Sequence record: NC_054917.1
Length of the DNA: 64,000 bases
Direction: 5' to 3' (one strand)
Source of the DNA: Escherichia phage vB_EcoM_G50
Made by a program: the position numbers and the translations under genes. Numbering within the stretch: position 1 is the first letter of the stretch; every line of letters starts with the position of its first letter. The notes under the pieces are model-generated. The model was not told where the DNA came from, searched no databases, and saw only the letters and a list, made by a program, of their open reading frames with translations. Positions 174-48,537 of this stretch are shown here, piece by piece.

Positions 174-1856
174 TTAAACCATTACAGTAAATCGACCAAC
201 TTTCTTCATTTGAAGATGCTGACCGTATGCTTGCGGGTCATGGTCTCTATGTGAAATAACAAAAACGTTAGTATTTTTTAAACTATCTAAAATAGTTGAA
301 ATAGCTTTTACACCTTCAACGTCGGTCGCTGAATCAAAAACTTCATCAAGAATTAGTGTGTTTATTTTAACACCTGAAACTTTTTCAGCAATATCACGCC
401 AAGTAAATAAAAGAGCAATATCAATTCGCGCTTTTTCACCTTGACTGAATGAAGCATAACTAAAATCTTCACGACCACGGGATTTAATTGTCTCATTAAA
501 TTCTTCATCTAATGTAAACACATAATCCGCTTCCATTATTTTAAGATAATGGTTAATCTGCTTATTAAATAATGGAATGTACTTTTTAATAATAGCACCT
601 TTAATACCAGAATCTTTGAGCATATCAGTCAAAATTCCTCGGTGGTATTTTTCCATTACTAAATTAGTTTTTGTCTTAACAATTTTATCAAGTTCTTCTT
701 GAAGCAGTGCTATTTCATCAGCATGGTCAATAAACTCAGAAGATGCTTTTTCTATAGCTGCTTTAACTTTTTTAGCTTTATCTACTGTCGTGATTAGAGA
801 TTGCTTTTTATTGCGAATATCATTTGCCAACGACTGCTGGGTTTTAATATTATCTCGGTATTCATCAACAAGAACTTTTAAATTATCACGATGTGTTGAA
901 AGCTGTTCAAACGAATGCGTGCATTCAGAAACTTTATCTTTAATTTTAGAAACAACTTTATCACCGGAACTTAATTGTGACAAGCAGGTTGGACATAATC
1001 CACCTTCGTGATACATATTAATGACTTTATTATACGAGTCAATTTTTGATTTAATTAAAACTGCTTCTTGACCGATTTTATTAAATGCATCAGTCGGGTC
1101 TTCATCTAAAACAATATTAACTAATCTTTCATTAGCTTCTTCTATTTCCGATTTTAGCGTTCTAGCTTCTTTTGCCAAATCATCATACATATTTTGAAGA
1201 CGAGTAAGGTTGTCACCCGTTAATTTTTTCTGGCGTTCAACGTTATCATTATATATTTTAATTTGTTGGATAATACTATCTTTTTTAACATCAAGCACTT
1301 GGTTTTGTGAATTTAATTCACGTATTAGTGCTTTATTAAGCTTATCCATTTCAGCTAATGTTCCTACCTCAAGCAGGTCTTCCACAAGCTTTCTTCGTGC
1401 AGGGGTCGACAAACCCATGAAAGGGGTATACCCTGCTGTACCAAGGACAACAATCTGCTTGAAACTGGCATATGACATTCCGATAAGCTGTTCAAATTCT
1501 GCTTGGAAATCTTTACTGCTGGCAGATTCATTAAGACGTGTACCGTTAACGGTGATTTCAAAAACGTTCGGTTTTTGTCCTCTTTTGATATAGTACTTTT
1601 TCTCATCATATTCCATCCACAGTTCAACTAAAAGTTCTTTCTTATTTGTGCTGTTTATTAATTGACCTTTCTTTACATCACGGAATGGCTTGCCAAAAAG
1701 CCCAAATGTGATGGCTTCTAACATAGTAGACTTACCACCGCCATTTCGTCCAGTAATAAGAGTTTTTTGAACCTTATCTAATTGAATGTCAATAGGATTT
1801 CCACCTACTGACATTATATTTTGATACCTAACTCGGTTTAGTTTAAAATTCTTCAC
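174..1856 (-). CDS. 46: Recombination endonuclease subunit gp46 (SbcC/Rad50-like ATPase)
   Basis: 560 aa; N-terminal Walker A GRNGGGKST; long central coiled-coil; gene order 46-47 next to a-gt as in T4. Confidence 0.93.
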   Translation of the reverse strand: MKNFKLNRVRYQNIMSVGGNPIDIQLDKVQKTLITGRNGGGKSTMLEAITFGLFGKPFRDVKKGQLINSTNKKELLVELWMEYDEKKYYIKRGQKPNVFEITVNGTRLNESASSKDFQAEFEQLIGMSYASFKQIVVLGTAGYTPFMGLSTPARRKLVEDLLEVGTLAEMDKLNKALIRELNSQNQVLDVKKDSIIQQIKIYNDNVERQKKLTGDNLTRLQNMYDDLAKEARTLKSEIEEANERLVNIVLDEDPTDAFNKIGQEAVLIKSKIDSYNKVINMYHEGGLCPTCLSQLSSGDKVVSKIKDKVSECTHSFEQLSTHRDNLKVLVDEYRDNIKTQQSLANDIRNKKQSLITTVDKAKKVKAAIEKASSEFIDHADEIALLQEELDKIVKTKTNLVMEKYHRGILTDMLKDSGIKGAIIKKYIPLFNKQINHYLKIMEADYVFTLDEEFNETIKSRGREDFSYASFSQGEKARIDIALLFTWRDIAEKVSGVKINTLILDEVFDSATDVEGVKAISTILDSLKNTNVFVISHRDHDPQAYGQHLQMKKVGRFTVMV

Positions 1857-35644: not shown

Positions 35645-36208
35645 TTATTTATCTAGTTTAGTTATTATAGCTTCTACGGCAGCTTTTAGCTTAGATGCGG
35701 TGTTAATACGATTTTTAATTTCAGTATACGCATCGCCAAGAACATCAAGGCTATCAGAATAAACACTTACACTATTGCGTTCGCTATTTGAAATAGAACC
35801 TTTAGTTTTACGATCAAAATCGGTGTACACGTCTTGAAGATCACGCGCTGCCTTCTTTGCATCATCCAATGCATCAAGAGCTTTATTCAAAGCATTAACG
35901 TATTTTTTAGTGTCGAACATATTCTTAGAAATTTTAGCAGGTGCACGTTCAGGAGTAGCTAATACAGATTTAGGAACCTGAGCGCCAGATGCCAATTTCT
36001 TAGAAATTTTGAAAAACGCTTTATTGAATTTATTTTCTTGACTCATCGTAAAAGAACTATTATCGATGTTGTACATTTCAATAGCTTTAGCTTTCCACTT
36101 AAGAAAATCGCCGCGGTCTTTTGGGTCCAAGTGGAAAAATACTTTAGTAAGATCTGCTTCAGATGGTAATTTTGCTGCTTCGGTTAAAAATTCGGCATAG
36201 GTTTTCAT
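35645..36208 (-). CDS. Internal-protein-like protein with capsid targeting sequence (additional cassette)
   Basis: 187 aa; N-terminus MKTYAEFLTEA; Lys/Ala-rich; bounded by terminator hairpins. Confidence 0.65.
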   Translation of the reverse strand: MKTYAEFLTEAAKLPSEADLTKVFFHLDPKDRGDFLKWKAKAIEMYNIDNSSFTMSQENKFNKAFFKISKKLASGAQVPKSVLATPERAPAKISKNMFDTKKYVNALNKALDALDDAKKAARDLQDVYTDFDRKTKGSISNSERNSVSVYSDSLDVLGDAYTEIKNRINTASKLKAAVEAIITKLDK

Positions 36209-36296
36209 TTAAAATCCTTGAAATAATTTATCGGTTGGTTATTAATTATTTATTACTTTGTTATTATCCGTAACAGCATTCTCTATGTGATTCAAA

Positions 36297-36324
36297 CTAA
36301 AAACCCCAACCTTTCGGTCGGGGC
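36297..36324 (-). terminator. Intrinsic terminator, copy 1 of a repeated hairpin
   Basis: ccccaacc-tttc-ggtcgggg with a U-run on the minus strand; near-identical copy at 36855-36884. Confidence 0.6.
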
Positions 36325-36332
36325 TAAGAATG

Positions 36333-36806
36333 TTATTTGATTTGTTTAGCAGACCAAATGCGGTCTTTGATGATTTTTTGAATGTCTTCAACATACTCTA
36401 GGTCATGAGCATGTGGGTTATCTTTGAAACTATAAGCACGAGCTAGTTTTTGGCCTTCAGTTTTGATTACTAAAAGCTCTTTAAGGATAGCTTCATATTT
36501 AGCGATAATTCCTTTAACAATATTTTTTTCTTGTGCAGCTTTAGGATCTGCTTTAGGAGCAGGTTTACCCGAAGCCTTTGCAAAAGCAGCACCAGTAGCA
36601 ACTAAACTTTTCCAGGCCATACTAACCGCATTTCCTGTAAATCCTTCTGCTTTCATGTCGCGAGCAAACTGGAATCGTGATTCGTCAGAAGCATCTTTAT
36701 AGGAATATTTACCCGCTGCAATGGCTGCTTTTGCGACAGCTTGAATTTCGGTGCTAGATGCTTCATTTAACACCGCTTCATTTAAAAATTGAGCATATGA
36801 TTTCAT
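36333..36806 (-). CDS. Internal-protein-like protein with capsid targeting sequence (additional cassette)
   Basis: 157 aa; N-terminus MKSYAQFLNEA; late-promoter motif upstream. Confidence 0.65.
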   Translation of the reverse strand: MKSYAQFLNEAVLNEASSTEIQAVAKAAIAAGKYSYKDASDESRFQFARDMKAEGFTGNAVSMAWKSLVATGAAFAKASGKPAPKADPKAAQEKNIVKGIIAKYEAILKELLVIKTEGQKLARAYSFKDNPHAHDLEYVEDIQKIIKDRIWSAKQIK

Positions 36807-36846
36807 CTTATTTCCTGTTTTAATTCGTGGATTTAATATACTACTA

Positions 36847-36854
36847 TATTTATA
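36847..36854 (-). promoter_or_regulatory. T4 late promoter motif TATAAATA
   Basis: Exact TATAAATA on the minus strand about 40 nt upstream of the ATG at 36806. Confidence 0.5.
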
Positions 36855-36884
36855 CTAAAAAGCCCCAACCTTTCGGTCGGGGCT
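36855..36884 (-). terminator. Intrinsic terminator, copy 2 of the repeated hairpin
   Basis: agccccaacc-tttc-ggtcggggct followed by UUUUU on the minus strand. Confidence 0.6.
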
Positions 36885-36889
36885 AAGCC

Positions 36890-37190
36890 TTGCGGCAACC
36901 TTGTCGGGGTTCCACCTGCTAAGGCAAGTGTTTGTACGAAACGCCGGGATTCGAACCCGGTTATTAAGCAGTTGACGCTACTTAATATTTTTAAAAGGCC
37001 ATATCTCGACCATATCCGAACGTTCCGTCAAAAACGCTACTCGGCTTACGGCAAAGATATTTCCTCGAATCGATAATTCGGTGCGCCGTTTCTGCTGTGA
37101 TGTAAGAGGGCATCAACAAATCATAAAGATTTATTAACACAATTCCTTACCCAGGGAACATCAGTCCGACGACTTACCGGTAGCGACCCG
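36890..37190 (-). ncRNA. Putative small stable RNA(s), tRNA-like (comparable to T4 species 1/2 RNAs)
   Basis: About 300 nt with no ORF; contains a canonical T-arm CCGGGUUCGAAUCCCGG (plus strand 36944-36960) and flanking helices but no clean cloverleaf by eye. Confidence 0.3.
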
Positions 37191-37195
37191 GTTTC

Positions 37196-37546
37196 TTAAT
37201 ATTCTTTTAAAGCATCAATCTGTTCACGACGTTTACGCCATAAATCAATTGCTTCATACGCAGATTCAGCATTTCGAATTGGACGGCATTTATATAAAGA
37301 CTTGTGATTTTGATATTGCGTAGATAACGGAATTTTATCTAAAAGGTCTTTACGTTCAAAGTATTCGTAACCATCTAAGCCAAATGAACGATTTTTGAGA
37401 AATTGCCAATGACCAAATTCGTTTTGAATATAAATATAATCCGCGTGTTGATAAAGTAAATTAATTTCACGAAATGAGATATGTTTTTCATATTCATTGA
37501 AGTAAAATGTTAAATCATGAACTACTAAATAAACATTACCTTTCAT
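37196..37546 (-). CDS. Hypothetical protein inside the tRNA/stable-RNA region
   Basis: 116-aa ORF; no GIY-YIG or HNH motifs, so not a segB-type homing endonuclease. Confidence 0.5.
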   Translation of the reverse strand: MKGNVYLVVHDLTFYFNEYEKHISFREINLLYQHADYIYIQNEFGHWQFLKNRSFGLDGYEYFERKDLLDKIPLSTQYQNHKSLYKCRPIRNAESAYEAIDLWRKRREQIDALKEY

Positions 37547-37564
37547 ATTTTCCTCACTTATAAT

Positions 37565-37640
37565 TGGTCGAGGCAGTAGGGATCGAACCTACGACCTAGG
37601 ACTTAGAAGGTCCTTGCTCTTCCTTCTGAGCTATGCCCCG
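37565..37640 (-). tRNA. tRNA-Arg (anticodon UCU)
   Basis: Hand-folded 76-nt cloverleaf; anticodon loop CUUCUAA; T-loop GGUUCGAUCC; encoded CCA. Confidence 0.8.
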
Positions 37641-37644
37641 TAAT

Positions 37645-37720
37645 TGGGGTGACCGATGGGAGTCGAACCCATGACTACGAGAATCACAATCTTGAGTTCT
37701 ACCAACTGAACTACGGCCAC
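37645..37720 (-). tRNA. tRNA-His (anticodon GUG), probable
   Basis: 76-nt cloverleaf; anticodon loop UUGUGAU; discriminator C73 as in His tRNAs; one A-C mismatch in the anticodon stem; no encoded G-1. Confidence 0.6.
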
Positions 37721-37814
37721 ATTAATACCTACTCCAACAATCAAGATGTCTTCACACGAAATTAAGAGAAGAGTGATCAGTTCAACCCCGATAATCGCGT
37801 CAAGTAGATATTAA

Positions 37815-37830
37815 TGTGACAACTGTCACA
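37815..37830. repeat. Short inverted repeat TGTGACA-ac-TGTCACA in the spacer between tRNAs
   Basis: 7-bp arms with a 2-nt spacer inside a 114-nt tRNA-free gap. Confidence 0.5.
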
Positions 37831-37834
37831 AATT

Positions 37835-37909
37835 TGGCGGACGTGATAGGATTCGAACCTATAACCAATCGCTTAACAGGCGATCGCTCTGCCATTGAGC
37901 TACACATCC
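37835..37909 (-). tRNA. tRNA-Asn (anticodon GUU)
   Basis: 75-nt cloverleaf; anticodon stem-loop AUCGC-CUGUUAA-GCGAU; T-loop GGUUCGAAUCC; encoded CCA. Confidence 0.75.
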
Positions 37910-37913
37910 AAAT

Positions 37914-38000
37914 TGGTGGGGAGTGATGGAGTCGAACCACCCGAGTCGCAATGACAATGGATTTACAGTCCACACCGCTACCTCTACGGGATAACTCCCC
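37914..38000 (-). tRNA. tRNA-Tyr (anticodon GUA), long variable arm
   Basis: 87 nt; anticodon stem-loop GUGGA-CUGUAAA-UCCAU; bacterial-type long variable arm; encoded CCA. Confidence 0.75.
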
Positions 38001-38013
38001 TTAATTCTTAATT

Positions 38014-38088
38014 TGGTGGCCCTGGGTGGAATTGAACCACCATCTGGCGATTATGAGTCGCTTGCTTGAACCTTCCAGCTACAGGGCC
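38014..38088 (-). tRNA. tRNA with CAU anticodon (Ile2-type or Met)
   Basis: 75 nt; anticodon loop CUCAUAA; the position corresponds to T4 tRNA-Ile. Confidence 0.75.
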
Positions 38089-38089
38089 T

Positions 38090-38165
38090 TGGTGCTGATT
38101 GACGGAATCGAACCGCCGACCTTCTCATTACAAGTGAGTTGCTCTACCTACTAAGCTAAATCAGC
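38090..38165 (-). tRNA. tRNA-Thr (anticodon UGU)
   Basis: 76 nt; anticodon loop CUUGUAA; T-loop GGUUCGAUUCC. Confidence 0.8.
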
Positions 38166-38170
38166 AAAAC

Positions 38171-38260
38171 TGGCGGAGGCGATAGGATTTGAACCTATGA
38201 GTCGCCGGAGCGACTGCCGGTTTTCAAGACCGGTGCATTAAACCACTCTGCCACGCCTCC
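38171..38260 (-). tRNA. tRNA-Ser (anticodon UGA), long variable arm
   Basis: 90 nt; anticodon stem-loop CCGGU-CUUGAAA-ACCGG; long variable arm. Confidence 0.85.
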
Positions 38261-38261
38261 A

Positions 38262-38336
38262 GTCTCCATACAAGGATTTGAACCTTGGACCTCCTGATCC
38301 CAAATCAGGCGCTCTACCAAACTGAGCTACACGGAG
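38262..38336 (-). tRNA. tRNA-Pro (anticodon UGG), CCA not encoded
   Basis: Acceptor stem CUCCGUG/UAUGGAG; anticodon loop UUUGGGA; 3' end lacks encoded CCA. Confidence 0.8.
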
Positions 38337-38346
38337 TAAATTAAAT

Positions 38347-38420
<74 letters not shown>

Positions 38421-38425
38421 AAATT

Positions 38426-38512
38426 TGGTGCGAGAAGTGGGACTCGAACCCACAAGGAAATCATTCCGCAGCATTTTAAGTGCTGTGCCTTTACCAATTT
38501 GACCATTCTCGC
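38426..38512 (-). tRNA. tRNA-Leu (anticodon UAA), long variable arm
   Basis: 87 nt; anticodon stem-loop CAGCA-CUUAAAA-UGCUG. Confidence 0.85.
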
Positions 38513-38513
38513 G

Positions 38514-38586
38514 CTGGGAATAAAGGACTCGAACCTTTGCATCCTGGAATCAAAATCCAGTGCCTTACCAACTTGGCTAATTCCCA
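38514..38586 (-). tRNA. tRNA-Gln (anticodon UUG), abuts tRNA-Leu
   Basis: 5' UGGGAAU acceptor; anticodon stem-loop CUGGA-UUUUGAU-UCCAG; 3' end is 1-2 nt from the Leu 5' end (dimeric precursor arrangement). Confidence 0.85.
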
Positions 38587-38683
38587 ATTATTAACAAAGG
38601 CTCTCAAGCAAGAACCCTTGATGATAGAGGGTATTAATCAGTGCGATATGAGTTAATAATAACAAATAATTCTTAAAGCATAT

Positions 38684-38971
38684 TTACCATTTATGATAAT
38701 ACATATTTACGATGCATTCAAGACCCAAAGGATTCTTGAAAATATCATATTCAAGAGGACCTTTTTCCGTTTCAATAAAGAAATCAAAATTTACTGTATT
38801 AAATTTACGGTCTTCCTTCACTAATTTAACTTGAGAAGATGAACGATCAATGTAAACCTTTTCAACTTCAAAACATGTTAAAATGCCATAATCATCAATC
38901 AAGGCTTTAGCTGCTTCTTGATCATATTTATATCCATTTTCAATGGATGATACTTTCGCATAAAGAATCAT
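38684..38971 (-). CDS. Hypothetical protein
   Basis: 95-aa ORF between ipI and the tRNA cluster. Confidence 0.5.
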   Translation of the reverse strand: MILYAKVSSIENGYKYDQEAAKALIDDYGILTCFEVEKVYIDRSSSQVKLVKEDRKFNTVNFDFFIETEKGPLEYDIFKNPLGLECIVNMYYHKW

Positions 38972-46554: not shown

Positions 46555-48537
46555 ATGGCAAATACCCCTGTAAATTATCAATTAACAAGAACAGCAAATG
46601 CTATTCCCGAGATATTCGTCGGGGGCACATTTGCTGAAATAAAACAAAACCTCATTGAATGGCTTAATGGTCAAAATGAATTTTTGGATTATGATTTTGA
46701 AGGCTCAAGATTAAACGTTTTGTGTGACCTTTTGGCTTATAATACACTGTACATCCAGCAGTTTGGTAATGCTGCCGTGTATGAAAGCTTTATGCGTACT
46801 GCTAACTTACGTAGTTCAGTAGTTCAAGCGGCACAAGATAATGGATATTTACCTACTTCAAAATCAGCTGCTCAAACTGAAATTATGCTAACTTGTACAG
46901 ACGCATTGAATAGAAATTACATTACTATTCCTCGTGGTACTCGCTTTTTAGCATATGCAAAGGATACTTCTGTTAATCCTTATAACTTTGTATCTACCGA
47001 AGATGTTATTGCTATTCGCGATAAAAATAACCAATATTTTCCGCGTTTAAAGCTGGCTCAAGGACGTATAGTAAGAACTGAAATCATTTATGATAAATTA
47101 ATACCTATTATCATTTATGACAAAAATATAGATAGAAACCAAGTTAAGCTGTATGTTGATGGAGCAGAATGGATTAACTGGACAAGAAAGTCAATGGTTC
47201 ATGCTGGTTCTACATCAACAATTTACTACATGCGTGAAACTATTGATGGAAATACTGAATTTTATTTTGGTGAAGGTGAGATTTCTGTTAACGCGGCAGA
47301 AGGAGCATTGACCGCTAATTATATTGGAGGTCTTAAACCTACTCAGAACTCTACGATTGTTATTGAGTACATCAGTACTAATGGTGCAGATGCGAATGGC
47401 GCAGTCGGATTTTCATACGCAGATACATTAACAAATATAACTGTCATCAACATTAATGAAAATCCAAACGATGACCCAGATTTTGTTGGGGCAGATGGCG
47501 GCGGTGACCCAGAAGATATTGAACGTATTCGCGAATTGGGTACTATTAAACGTGAAACCCAGCAACGATGCGTAACTGCGACTGACTATGATACATTCGT
47601 TTCAGAGAGATTTGGTTCTATTATTCAAGCAGTTCAGACTTTCACTGATTCTACTAAACCTGGTTATGCATTTATTGCTGCTAAACCTAAATCAGGTCTG
47701 TATTTAACTACTGTACAACGCGAAGATATTAAAAATTATCTCAAAGACTATAATTTAGCTCCTATTACGCCATCAATTATTTCTCCTAATTATCTTTTTA
47801 TTAAGACTAATTTAAAAGTCACATATGCTTTAAATAAGCTACAAGAATCCGAACAGTGGCTCGAAGGTCAAATAATTGATAAAATTGATCGTTATTATAC
47901 CGAAGATGTAGAAATTTTTAACTCATCTTTCGCTAAATCTAAGATGTTGACATATGTAGATGATGCAGATCATTCTATCATTGGCTCATCGGCGACAATT
48001 CAAATAGTACGTGAAGTACAAAACTTCTATAAAACGCCTGAAGCGGGTATTAAATACAATAATCAAATAAAAGATCGTTCTATGGAATCTAATACGTTTT
48101 CATTTAATTCTGGACGAAAGGTTGTAAATCCTGATACTGGTTTAGAAGAAGATGTATTATATGACGTTCGTATAGTATCAACAGACCGAGATTCTAAAGG
48201 AATTGGTAAAGTTATTATTGGTCCATTTGCTTCTGGCGATGTTACAGAAAATGAAAACATTCAGCCGTATACAGGCAACGATTTTAACAAATTAGCAAAT
48301 TCTGATGGACGCGACAAATACTATGTTATCGGTGAAATAAATTATCCAGCTGATGTGATTTACTGGAATATCGCTAAAATTAATTTAACATCTGAAAAAT
48401 TTGAAGTTCAGACTATTGAATTATATTCTGACCCAACCGATGATGTTATCTTTACTCGCGATGGTTCACTGATTGTATTTGAAAATGACTTACGTCCACA
48501 ATACTTAACTATCGATTTGGAGCCTATATCACAATGA
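46555..48537 (+). CDS. 6: Baseplate wedge protein gp6
   Basis: 660 aa; gene order and size as T4 gp6. Confidence 0.93.
   Translation: MANTPVNYQLTRTANAIPEIFVGGTFAEIKQNLIEWLNGQNEFLDYDFEGSRLNVLCDLLAYNTLYIQQFGNAAVYESFMRTANLRSSVVQAAQDNGYLPTSKSAAQTEIMLTCTDALNRNYITIPRGTRFLAYAKDTSVNPYNFVSTEDVIAIRDKNNQYFPRLKLAQGRIVRTEIIYDKLIPIIIYDKNIDRNQVKLYVDGAEWINWTRKSMVHAGSTSTIYYMRETIDGNTEFYFGEGEISVNAAEGALTANYIGGLKPTQNSTIVIEYISTNGADANGAVGFSYADTLTNITVININENPNDDPDFVGADGGGDPEDIERIRELGTIKRETQQRCVTATDYDTFVSERFGSIIQAVQTFTDSTKPGYAFIAAKPKSGLYLTTVQREDIKNYLKDYNLAPITPSIISPNYLFIKTNLKVTYALNKLQESEQWLEGQIIDKIDRYYTEDVEIFNSSFAKSKMLTYVDDADHSIIGSSATIQIVREVQNFYKTPEAGIKYNNQIKDRSMESNTFSFNSGRKVVNPDTGLEEDVLYDVRIVSTDRDSKGIGKVIIGPFASGDVTENENIQPYTGNDFNKLANSDGRDKYYVIGEINYPADVIYWNIAKINLTSEKFEVQTIELYSDPTDDVIFTRDGSLIVFENDLRPQYLTIDLEPISQ

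Follow-up and report, generated by a model that had tools for sequence, protein, structure and literature searches.

A T2-type, segB-free tRNA operon in Escherichia phage vB_EcoM_G50 carries rnaC and rnaD orthologues and a probable structured tRNA-His leader

Results

Gene content of the tRNA region

We analysed a 64,000-nt stretch of the genome of Escherichia phage vB_EcoM_G50 (sequence record NC_054917.1; hereafter, this whole stretch is called the window) and focused on positions 36890–37834, a part of the phage tRNA operon that includes an unassigned 114-nt gap (37721–37834) between the genes for tRNA-Asn and tRNA-His. The phage is a Tequatrovirus, with positions 36800–37900 being 99.7% identical to Shigella phage SF2-1 and 98–99% identical to wV7/RB32-like phages by BLAST. 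ARAGORN placed eleven tRNAs at 37565–38586, in the order Gln, Leu, Gly, Pro, Ser, Thr, Met/Ile (CAT), Tyr, Asn, gap, His, Arg. Every gene of the focal interval lies on the minus strand, and the only open reading frame (ORF) of at least 60 amino acids within it encodes a protein of 116 residues. This ORF, a canonical T-arm and a short inverted repeat in the gap had been listed in an earlier, sequence-only reading of this DNA (the original prediction), and all of them were found where it had placed them. Coordinates of the features are collected in Table 1.

In allelic terms, the interval represents the T2-type, segB-free form of the tRNA operon of T-even phages. Like the window, the T2L tRNA region (PMC2330249; T2 genome AP018813) lacks segB, has the tRNA-Met/Tyr/Asn/Arg set, and carries a 351-bp ORF (trna.2) at the tRNA-Arg/rnaD position, rnaD, rnaC and a SegB site in tRNA-Asn. 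Unlike the window, T2 contains a second ORF, trna.1 (133 aa), where the window has tRNA-Thr, and it possesses neither tRNA-His nor the element described below, its Asn and Arg genes being just 4 nt apart. T2 trna.1 itself (locus L034, 3711–4112) has no match in Pfam or NCBIfam and carries the mistaken label "tail sheath monomer" in AP018813.

A candidate structured leader upstream of tRNA-His

For the 114-nt gap, the original prediction had highlighted the inverted repeat TGTGACA-ac-TGTCACA. The repeat exists, but 7-bp inverted repeats number 85 in the window as against ~48 in shuffles (~1 per 750 bp), and taken alone it is near chance level. Both of its arms are kept in phage sutha, in Gelderlandvirus STP4-a (with a larger loop) and in Tequatrovirus; in Karamvirus and Roskildevirus just the 3′ half (TGTCACA) persists, and Jiaodavirus lacks the repeat. 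What matters instead is the neighbouring 14-bp helix, P1, which closes a three-way junction within a 95-nt element and whose 3′ strand runs directly into G+1 of tRNA-His.

The gap folds more stably than shuffled sequence (z=-2.8), and its predicted helices are conserved as pairs. In a set of 15 distinct sequences, pairing amounts to 98.6% in P1, where three pairs differ on both strands of the helix and three on a single strand, and to 100% in P3, which shows four pair types at one position and a loop of the form UC(A/U)UGAU; P2 is 89% paired, and the apical hairpin varies. Sliding the pairing partners by 1–3 columns lowers pairing to 32–45%. An overall assessment gave P1 as 98% paired (five compensatory pairs), P3 as 96–100% paired (two compensatory pairs) and the slid controls as 31–47% paired. 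In a hand-anchored table of 14 lineages, compensatory changes in P1 fell at positions 3, 7, 8, 9, 10 and 11, and 28 cells held U.G as compared to one that held C.A. Such an excess of U.G is what an RNA transcribed in the sense of the tRNA would show, and it speaks against a palindrome at the DNA level. We therefore consider it very likely, judging from these substitution patterns, that the gap encodes a conserved structured RNA on the tRNA strand.

The element corresponds to none of the RNA classes searched. Scanning 37721–37834 with cmscan under permissive filters gave no Rfam match at E values up to 10. A degenerate tRNA was ruled out, as the gap has no T-loop and no cloverleaf. YrlA (Y-RNA-like, RF02553) resembles the element in its long end-closing helix, its multi-branch interior and its location beside tRNAs; unlike YrlA, however, the element matches no YrlA model and has no T-loop-like module, with weak YrlA matches falling on the tRNAs. 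We also evaluated a small protein gene, namely a 22-aa plus-strand ORF (MSSHEIKRRVISSTPIIASSRY, 37746–37814) antisense to the element. Karam- and Jiaodavirus preserve the frame of this ORF. We nonetheless judged it spurious because it is truncated and altered in STP4-a, shows no synonymous-site bias, and overlies a helix that covaries.

Separately, the apical loops of the element (ACUGAUCAC in the window, 37773–37781) carry palindromic hexamers that are type-specific: UGAUCA; UCAUGA, which also occurs in the P3 loop (37740–37746); GUUAAC together with CCGCGG; and CAUAUG together with CUCGAG. Their sequence suggests loop–loop kissing or dimerisation, but they could be coincidental.

Distribution and variation of the leader

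BLAST recovered copies of the element from ~380 phage records, at 76% identity for Gelderlandvirus and 82–88% for Karamvirus and the Jiaodavirus of Klebsiella/Raoultella. Over all, the copies with 76–88% identity come from Pectobacterium phage PM2 and from the genera Karam-, Jiaoda-, Gelderland-, Roskilde-, Winkler- and Kagamiyamavirus; at least ten T4-like genera have retained the helix, with compensatory changes. A covariance model recovered members on which it had not been trained, each beside tRNA-His (PM2, Winklervirus, Kagamiyamavirus and two IMG/VR contigs), and its matches adjoin tRNA-His or remnants thereof only. The model found no leader in T4, T2, RB3 or ~75 unrelated phage tRNA-His loci. 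An IMG/VR locus (L013) that fitted the search pattern by chance was discarded.

The interior of the element varies widely. In Edwardsiella phage PEi20 the leader comprises just P1 and a tetraloop (32 nt) and in Providencia phage PSTRCR_121 a 60-nt hairpin, while that of IT22 extends to 107 nt. P1 and its abutment to the –1 nucleotide are kept despite interiors ranging from a 4-nt loop (PEi20) to ~79 nt (IT22), a pattern in which the interior appears dispensable and the helix does not. As the interiors of the PEi20 and Providencia elements are reduced to a hairpin, P1 and its contact with the tRNA constitute the only universal part. Consistently long spacers precede tRNA-His (at least 33 nt in 12/12 phages), while most other tRNAs are preceded by 0–10 nt. 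Looser counterparts were found in Aeromonas phages Ah1 and phiAS5, where a different 7-bp helix (AUAAAUG/CAUUUAU) ends at –1, and in one Vequintavirinae phage, in which a structured leader of 73 nt is closed by a helix ending at –2. In two lineages (sutha/236Ecol005PP and STP4-a), the leader is retained and tRNA-His has been lost beyond its first 3–4 nt.

The 5′ end of the phage tRNA-His

The last nucleotide of P1 is the –1 position of tRNA-His. E. coli RNase P retains G-1 of its own tRNA-His because of the pairing of this base with C73. The phage gene resembles E. coli hisR in having an 80% identical body, C73 and the GUG anticodon; unlike the phage gene, hisR has an unstructured leader and G-1 opposite C73, whereas in the phage a 14-bp helix pairs U-1. 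All 12 phages compared have U at this position. Across 87 distinct IMG/VR loci encoding a phage tRNA-His of the window type, –1 was T in 62 and G in 18; many phage tRNA-His genes thus seem to lack the encoded identity nucleotide. E. coli histidyl-tRNA synthetase (HisRS) relies on G-1 together with the 5′ phosphate of that nucleotide (PMC9976931). When the same 87 loci were tested for a 9-nt helix abutting –1, the test was not discriminating, because the background already amounts to 7–8 of 9 pairs.

Orthologues of T4 rnaC and rnaD

For the ORF-free stretch downstream, the original prediction had offered two options: stable RNAs of the T4 species 1/2 type, or a non-canonical tRNA. The former stood. 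A BLAST search with 36880–37200 matched ~800 phage genomes, with 96% identity to T4; the matched T4 region is annotated as rnaC, and the RB3 record annotates both rnaC and rnaD. The rnaC sequence is identical to that of T4 at 136/139 positions and to that of RB3 at 138/139, with the same flanks and in syntenic position (after rnaD, before the terminator). The rnaD sequence, located directly upstream of rnaC, is identical at 109/117 (T4) and 104/117 positions (RB3) over the conserved part, which begins at 37195, right after the ORF stop codon. There is hence little doubt from homology and synteny that 36935–37199 encodes the rnaC and rnaD orthologues. Near-identical sequence, order, terminator and tRNA co-transcription are shared with T4; the difference is that in T4 rnaD follows tRNA-Arg directly, whereas in the window the ORF intervenes, with its stop codon lying directly at the 5′ end of rnaD.

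A structured RNA signal, expected for this stretch by the original prediction, was evident for rnaC, whose minimum-energy fold of -50.1 kcal/mol has z=-4.1 against shuffles; that of rnaD is only marginally better than shuffles (z=-2.0). An RNAalifold consensus over five genera, with homologues including Moonvirus, Karamvirus and Tegunavirus, contains 47 pairs, 12 of them with compensatory changes. The consensus fold comprises a short terminal stem, a ~70-nt arm in the position of a D-arm, a 10-bp arm carrying an invariant 6-nt loop (CGUCAA), and a true T-arm whose stem covaries (CCGGG/CCCGG versus CCUGG/CCAGG versus CUUGG/CCAAG). Neither rnaC nor rnaD matches a family of Rfam 15 or is called a tRNA by ARAGORN; in a Rfam scan of 36200–38700 at E values up to 10 the tRNAs alone were matched, with nothing for rnaC, rnaD or the gap, and no cloverleaf was recognised in 36890–37195 or 37721–37834 by ARAGORN or by RF00005 and its clan.

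Homologues of rnaC that are ~84% identical lie unannotated among the tRNA genes of Karamvirus and Moonvirus, the Karamvirus copy between tRNA-Trp and tRNA-Gly; no rnaD homologue was seen beside them in the BLAST matches. RNA C and RNA D belong to a stable-RNA class known since the 1970s and have unknown roles according to reviews (PMC3014915). For a T4-like phage, a 2025 evolution study reported a convergent single-nucleotide polymorphism within rnaD (PMC12685909).

The 116-aa ORF is the trna.2 gene of T2L

The 116-aa ORF belongs to PHROG 3355 (E=1e-52), and its counterpart in T2 (351 bp, same place) is identical at 104/116 residues (89%). The junctions are the same as in T2: CCA-ATTATAAGTGAGGAAAAT-ATG upstream and, downstream, a TAA stop followed directly by GAAACCGGG of rnaD. 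In addition, two primers (#24 and #25) from the 2008 study of Brok-Volchanskaya et al. (PMC2330249), where they served to probe the "T2L trna.2 ORF", match this sequence. As the original prediction had said, it bears no sign of a GIY-YIG or HNH nuclease: no Pfam match was obtained at E values up to 1, no NCBIfam match, and no GIY-YIG, HNH or other nuclease profile, while T4 SegB—the positive control—scored the GIY-YIG family PF01541 in Pfam with E=2e-6. A structural model of medium confidence (predicted local distance difference test [pLDDT], 71) had no structural neighbour in the PDB, nuclease folds included. The ORF is almost certainly T2L trna.2, which its sequence presents as a small orphan protein without nuclease motif and with a Shine-Dalgarno sequence of its own.

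The position of this ORF is unlike that of T4 segB, in that it occupies the tRNA-Arg/rnaD interval and is not located upstream of tRNA-Arg. Since tRNA-Arg and rnaD are separated by merely 4–5 nt in T4 and RB3, the ORF represents a clean insertion into the spacer. The spacer (37196–37564 in the window) is an insertion hot spot that is polymorphic among relatives: T4 and RB3 have no gene there, the window, T2 and phage teqdroes have the 116-aa ORF, and sutha and 236Ecol005PP have a 184-aa ORF (loci L004 and L018, 839–1393) with a MUG113/T5orf172 domain of the GIY-YIG superfamily. The ORF family is small (seven clusters at 90% identity; eight representatives among 1.8 billion proteins), orphan and confined to T4-like phages. 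Its distant relatives, in Pectobacterium phage PM2 and in a Logan metagenome contig, likewise lie directly after a tRNA within tRNA clusters.

The segB-free region as a target of SegB

No segB-type endonuclease is encoded in the window, in agreement with the original prediction. A tblastn search with T4 SegB against all 64 kb gave a best E value of 0.17, the weak match (47365–47517) being spurious and antisense inside a 660-aa baseplate gene, and a GIY..YIG pattern occurred in none of the six frames. The window has the same genomic neighbourhood as T4 and T6, whose SegB is a GIY-YIG homing endonuclease of the tRNA region, and it contains the target site; the gene itself is absent. T2L, RB1 and RB3 are also without segB (PMC2330249).

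The 27-bp site preferred by SegB is located at the 3′ end of tRNA-Asn, has the core GGTTCRANTCC with cleavage after CCAR, and is discriminated by the bases G6, A16, G18, A26 and A27 (PMC2330249). The window carries all five of these bases; its tRNA-Asn, along with the CCAAAT that comes next, shows no difference from T2 and RB3, and the site is thus intact. In T4 x T2L crosses, segB inheritance was nearly 100% and the trna.2 ORF was excluded (PMC2330249, 2008). It is thus highly probable, by analogy, that SegB would cut the segB-free region with its intact preferred site, and that the region would be converted, if a segB-positive phage were present in the same infection. The idea of a homing target, raised by the original prediction, is well supported and already known from T2L.

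Endonuclease invasion of the window's allele type occurs in nature, as the closely related phage teqdroes (NC_054932.1), which has the same Asn-leader-His-Arg-ORF arrangement, carries a gene for a 202-aa SegB-like protein (locus L040, 766–1374) that replaces tRNA-Pro between tRNA-Gly and tRNA-Ser. The segB-free state is the commoner one, given ~177 phage records with SegB at 80% identity or above versus ~800 with the rnaC/rnaD region. SegB of T6 was found in a 2026 paper to also drive tRNA-Tyr amplification, leading to escape from Septu (PMC13096335).

As a side observation, the rnaC T-arm (36947–36957, minus strand) fits the SegB core motif GGTTCRANTCC in a motif scan; rnaC may for this reason be a possible minor cleavage site, like tRNA genes (PMC2330249).

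Flanking genes and annotation inconsistencies

The trailer and terminator after rnaC are identical to T4 at 73/74 positions. Beyond them lie two paralogous ORFs of PHROG 2280 (36333–36806 and 35645–36208, both minus strand), which start with MKSYAQFLNE|A and MKTYAEFLTE|A, N-termini that we take to resemble the capsid-targeting sequence of T4 internal proteins cleaved by the prohead protease. A copy of the rnaC terminator hairpin follows each of the two; copies of this hairpin lie at 36861–36884 and 36302–36325. As T4, RB3 and T2 have e.8 directly after rnaC, the PHROG 2280 ORFs look like inserted internal-protein cassettes. An insertion of ~500 bp suspected in REP4 and slur phages turned out to be an artefact of the repeated terminator/internal-protein cassette being joined by BLAST.

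The CAU-anticodon tRNA at 38014–38088 (minus strand) is tRNA-Met according to ARAGORN. Public records are inconsistent on its homologue, labelling it tRNA-Ile in T4 and REP4 and tRNA-Met in RB3 and T2.

Table 1 Coordinates of features in the window and of rnaC homologues in other phages
Feature	Position	Strand	Basis or remark
Intrinsic terminator hairpin (AGCCCCGACCGAAAGGTTGGGGCT) and T run, end of the tRNA/rnaD/rnaC transcription unit	36861–36884	-	Terminator scan
rnaC (T4 species 1 RNA) orthologue, four-arm tRNA-like stable RNA	36935–37073	-	Annotation transfer from T4 and RB3
rnaC T-arm, CCGGG-UUCGAAU-CCCGG (CCGGGUUCGAAUCCCGG)	36944–36960	-	Direct sequence reading
rnaD (T4 species 2 RNA) orthologue	37079–37199	-	Annotation transfer from RB3
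116-aa ORF, T2L "trna.2 ORF", PHROG 3355	37196–37546	-	Between the tRNA-Arg CCA and rnaD
Shine-Dalgarno sequence GAGG of the 116-aa ORF, 5 nt upstream of the ATG	37552–37555	-	Direct reading; identical in T2
tRNA-Arg (UCU)	37565–37640	-	ARAGORN, Rfam
tRNA-His (GUG), C73, U at -1 (not G)	37645–37720	-	ARAGORN, Rfam, alignment to E. coli hisR
Probable conserved structured tRNA-His leader, 95 nt (AUUAAUAUCUACUU...GGAGUAGGUAUUAAU)	37721–37815	-	
Leader P1, 14-bp helix	37802–37815 (5′ arm), 37721–37734 (3′ arm)		Last nucleotide is tRNA-His -1
Leader P2, ACGCG/CGUGU, 5 bp	37796–37800 with 37754–37758		Bears the variable apical hairpin
Leader P3, 4-bp stem, 7-nt loop UCUUGAU	37736–37750		
Short hairpin TGTGACA-ac-TGTCACA	37815–37830	-	Directly 5′ of P1, shares base 37815; RNA fold 6 bp, 4-nt loop
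Preferred 27-bp SegB site (GGTTCGAATCCTATCACGTCCGCCAAA), 3′ end of tRNA-Asn plus 2 nt	37833–37859	-	Identical to T2, RB3
tRNA-Asn (GUU)	37835–37909	-	ARAGORN, Rfam (74 bits)
rnaC homologue, Enterobacter phage Entb_43 (locus L162)	199–349		
rnaC homologue (locus L005)	1120–1273		
rnaC homologue, Citrobacter phage Moon (locus L043)	501–653		

Discussion

Taken together, the locus is probably best explained as a T2-type, segB-free tRNA operon that comprises rnaC and rnaD, the trna.2 ORF, a structured tRNA-His leader and a SegB target. The operon would be read from right to left on the minus strand as a single transcription unit, in the order tRNA-Tyr, tRNA-Asn, short hairpin, 95-nt leader, tRNA-His, tRNA-Arg, 116-aa ORF, rnaD, rnaC and terminator, and host tRNA-processing enzymes would presumably cut its transcript into stable RNAs. 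RNase P would cleave at G+1 of tRNA-His, with U-1 offering the usual RNase P context, and thereby release the leader as a blunt-ended, structured hairpin-like RNA of ~95 nt. P1, which pairs the –1 nucleotide and is able to stack against the acceptor stem, would therefore probably tune the site, rate or timing of tRNA-His 5′ maturation.

What the 95-nt element does is a matter of graded likelihood. A structured leader of pre-tRNA-His is its most likely identity. That this leader acts in cis on tRNA-His maturation is a tentative reading of the comparative data, and a somewhat more tentative one is that P1 serves as a dedicated maturation or identity device for a phage tRNA-His that lacks an encoded G-1. 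Such a device could set where or when RNase P or another nuclease cuts—for example, so that the –1 nucleotide is kept with a 5′ phosphate—or could hold tRNA-His inactive until processed; the excised three-way-junction RNA with its swappable apical module could also be a second functional product. Several points weigh against a tRNA-His leader of this kind. The processing steps are all inferred from knowledge of the T4 and E. coli tRNA operons, and a fully base-paired leader would be expected to hinder RNase P, not to help it. The presence of the leader without tRNA-His in two lineages implies either a tRNA-independent function or very recent deletions. P2 and the apical hairpin have weak support (81% and 76% paired, respectively). 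Finally, the alignment comprises only 18 distinct sequences of modest diversity; since these are related by descent and the alignment (A7) was fitted to the model, the finding that 14 pairs changed on both sides, a number reached by 0/500 shuffles, is supportive but overstates the significance.

The persistence of the element where tRNA-His has been deleted (sutha, 236Ecol005PP, STP4-a) would also be expected if it were a free-standing stable RNA acting in trans, like rnaC and rnaD—a decoy, a protein sponge or an anti-defence RNA—for which the neighbouring tRNAs merely serve to get its ends cut. In line with this, the core (the junction and P3 with loop UCAUGAU) is better conserved between genera than the flanking tRNAs; the Jiaodavirus element sits exactly between the CCA+1 nt of tRNA-Gln and tRNA-His, which would permit clean release by processing; Karamvirus rnaC is likewise embedded between tRNAs; and the palindromic hexamers in the apical loops could mediate loop–loop contacts. 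We nevertheless regard a trans-acting RNA as rather unlikely, as PEi20 and the Providencia phage have exchanged the interior for a plain hairpin and kept the helix beside tRNA-His, the apical module has been swapped among at least four unrelated types, and the element was never found apart from a tRNA-His gene or its remnant. A feature of the DNA itself, such as a miniature inverted-repeat element, a nuclease or recombinase site, a promoter or a gene-conversion scar, would account for terminal inverted repeats of 13–14 bp around a variable interior, for the changing neighbours (Asn, Gln, Ser or Thr upstream; Arg, Ser, Glu or Phe downstream) and for the SegB-like genes often found within ~1 kb. 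Yet the arms tolerate T.G and not C.A (28 versus 1), as fits only an RNA in the tRNA sense, P3 covaries too, the element is present in a single copy per genome at a constant place relative to tRNA-His, a target-site duplication was not seen, and a scan of the gap detected no sigma-70-like promoter or terminator; this explanation is very improbable.

Two further alternatives concern the neighbouring genes. A functional non-canonical tRNA, the second option of the original prediction for the ORF-free stretch, could be seen in rnaC on account of its perfect T-arm, acceptor-like terminal stem and anticodon-like arm and its placement among tRNAs in Karamvirus and Moonvirus. However, neither ARAGORN nor the Rfam tRNA and tmRNA models call it, the "anticodon" arm has 10 bp and a 6-nt loop, ~70 nt take the place of the D-arm, the acceptor-like stem is limited to 5 bp with an internal loop, and the molecule has been listed as a stable RNA of unknown role since the 1970s (PMC3014915), so that a tRNA function appears extremely improbable. 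The 116-aa ORF, in turn, might be a selfish or mobile gene of the Arg|rnaD spacer—a minimal or degenerate nuclease, or a homing passenger. Its clean insertion into a spacer that is empty in T4 and RB3, the MUG113/T5orf172 ORF that fills the same slot in sutha and 236Ecol005PP, and a predicted N-terminal beta-beta-alpha-beta-beta arrangement with conserved Tyr, Arg, His and Glu that, on reading, looks loosely GIY-YIG-like, are compatible with this, and given the medium confidence of the structural model, a fold match could have been missed. On the other side, no nuclease profile matches the ORF although SegB scores in the same search, it has no DNA-binding domain, its homologues in distant genera are syntenic within tRNA clusters, which suggests vertical retention, and in the T4 x T2L crosses it was the excluded marker and not the invader (PMC2330249). 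A mobile gene thus seems improbable, and a small orphan protein of the trna.2 type is the preferred assignment.

The segB-free T2-type region, its susceptibility to SegB, and rnaC and rnaD are already published biology, and the value of their recognition here lies in annotation: hardly any GenBank record marks rnaC, rnaD or the leader. The conserved 95-nt tRNA-His leader, by contrast, is apparently undescribed; our literature search, in which older (pre-2000) work was poorly covered, found no description of a phage tRNA-His leader. Phage tRNA clusters are increasingly recognised as counter-defence loci (PMC13096335).

Among tRNAs, tRNA-His is the sole one whose identity depends on an extra 5′ nucleotide, and here is a family of phage tRNA-His genes in which the G is not encoded and a covarying helix is found at exactly that position instead. 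If P1 were indeed a dedicated maturation or identity device, the leader would represent an undescribed RNA class in at least ten T4-like genera, with a looser version in Aeromonas phages and one Vequintavirinae phage. Should the helix govern 5′-end formation or charging, this would constitute a new way of making or regulating functional tRNA-His in E. coli, and the leader would also be a third unexplained stable RNA of the T-even tRNA operon.

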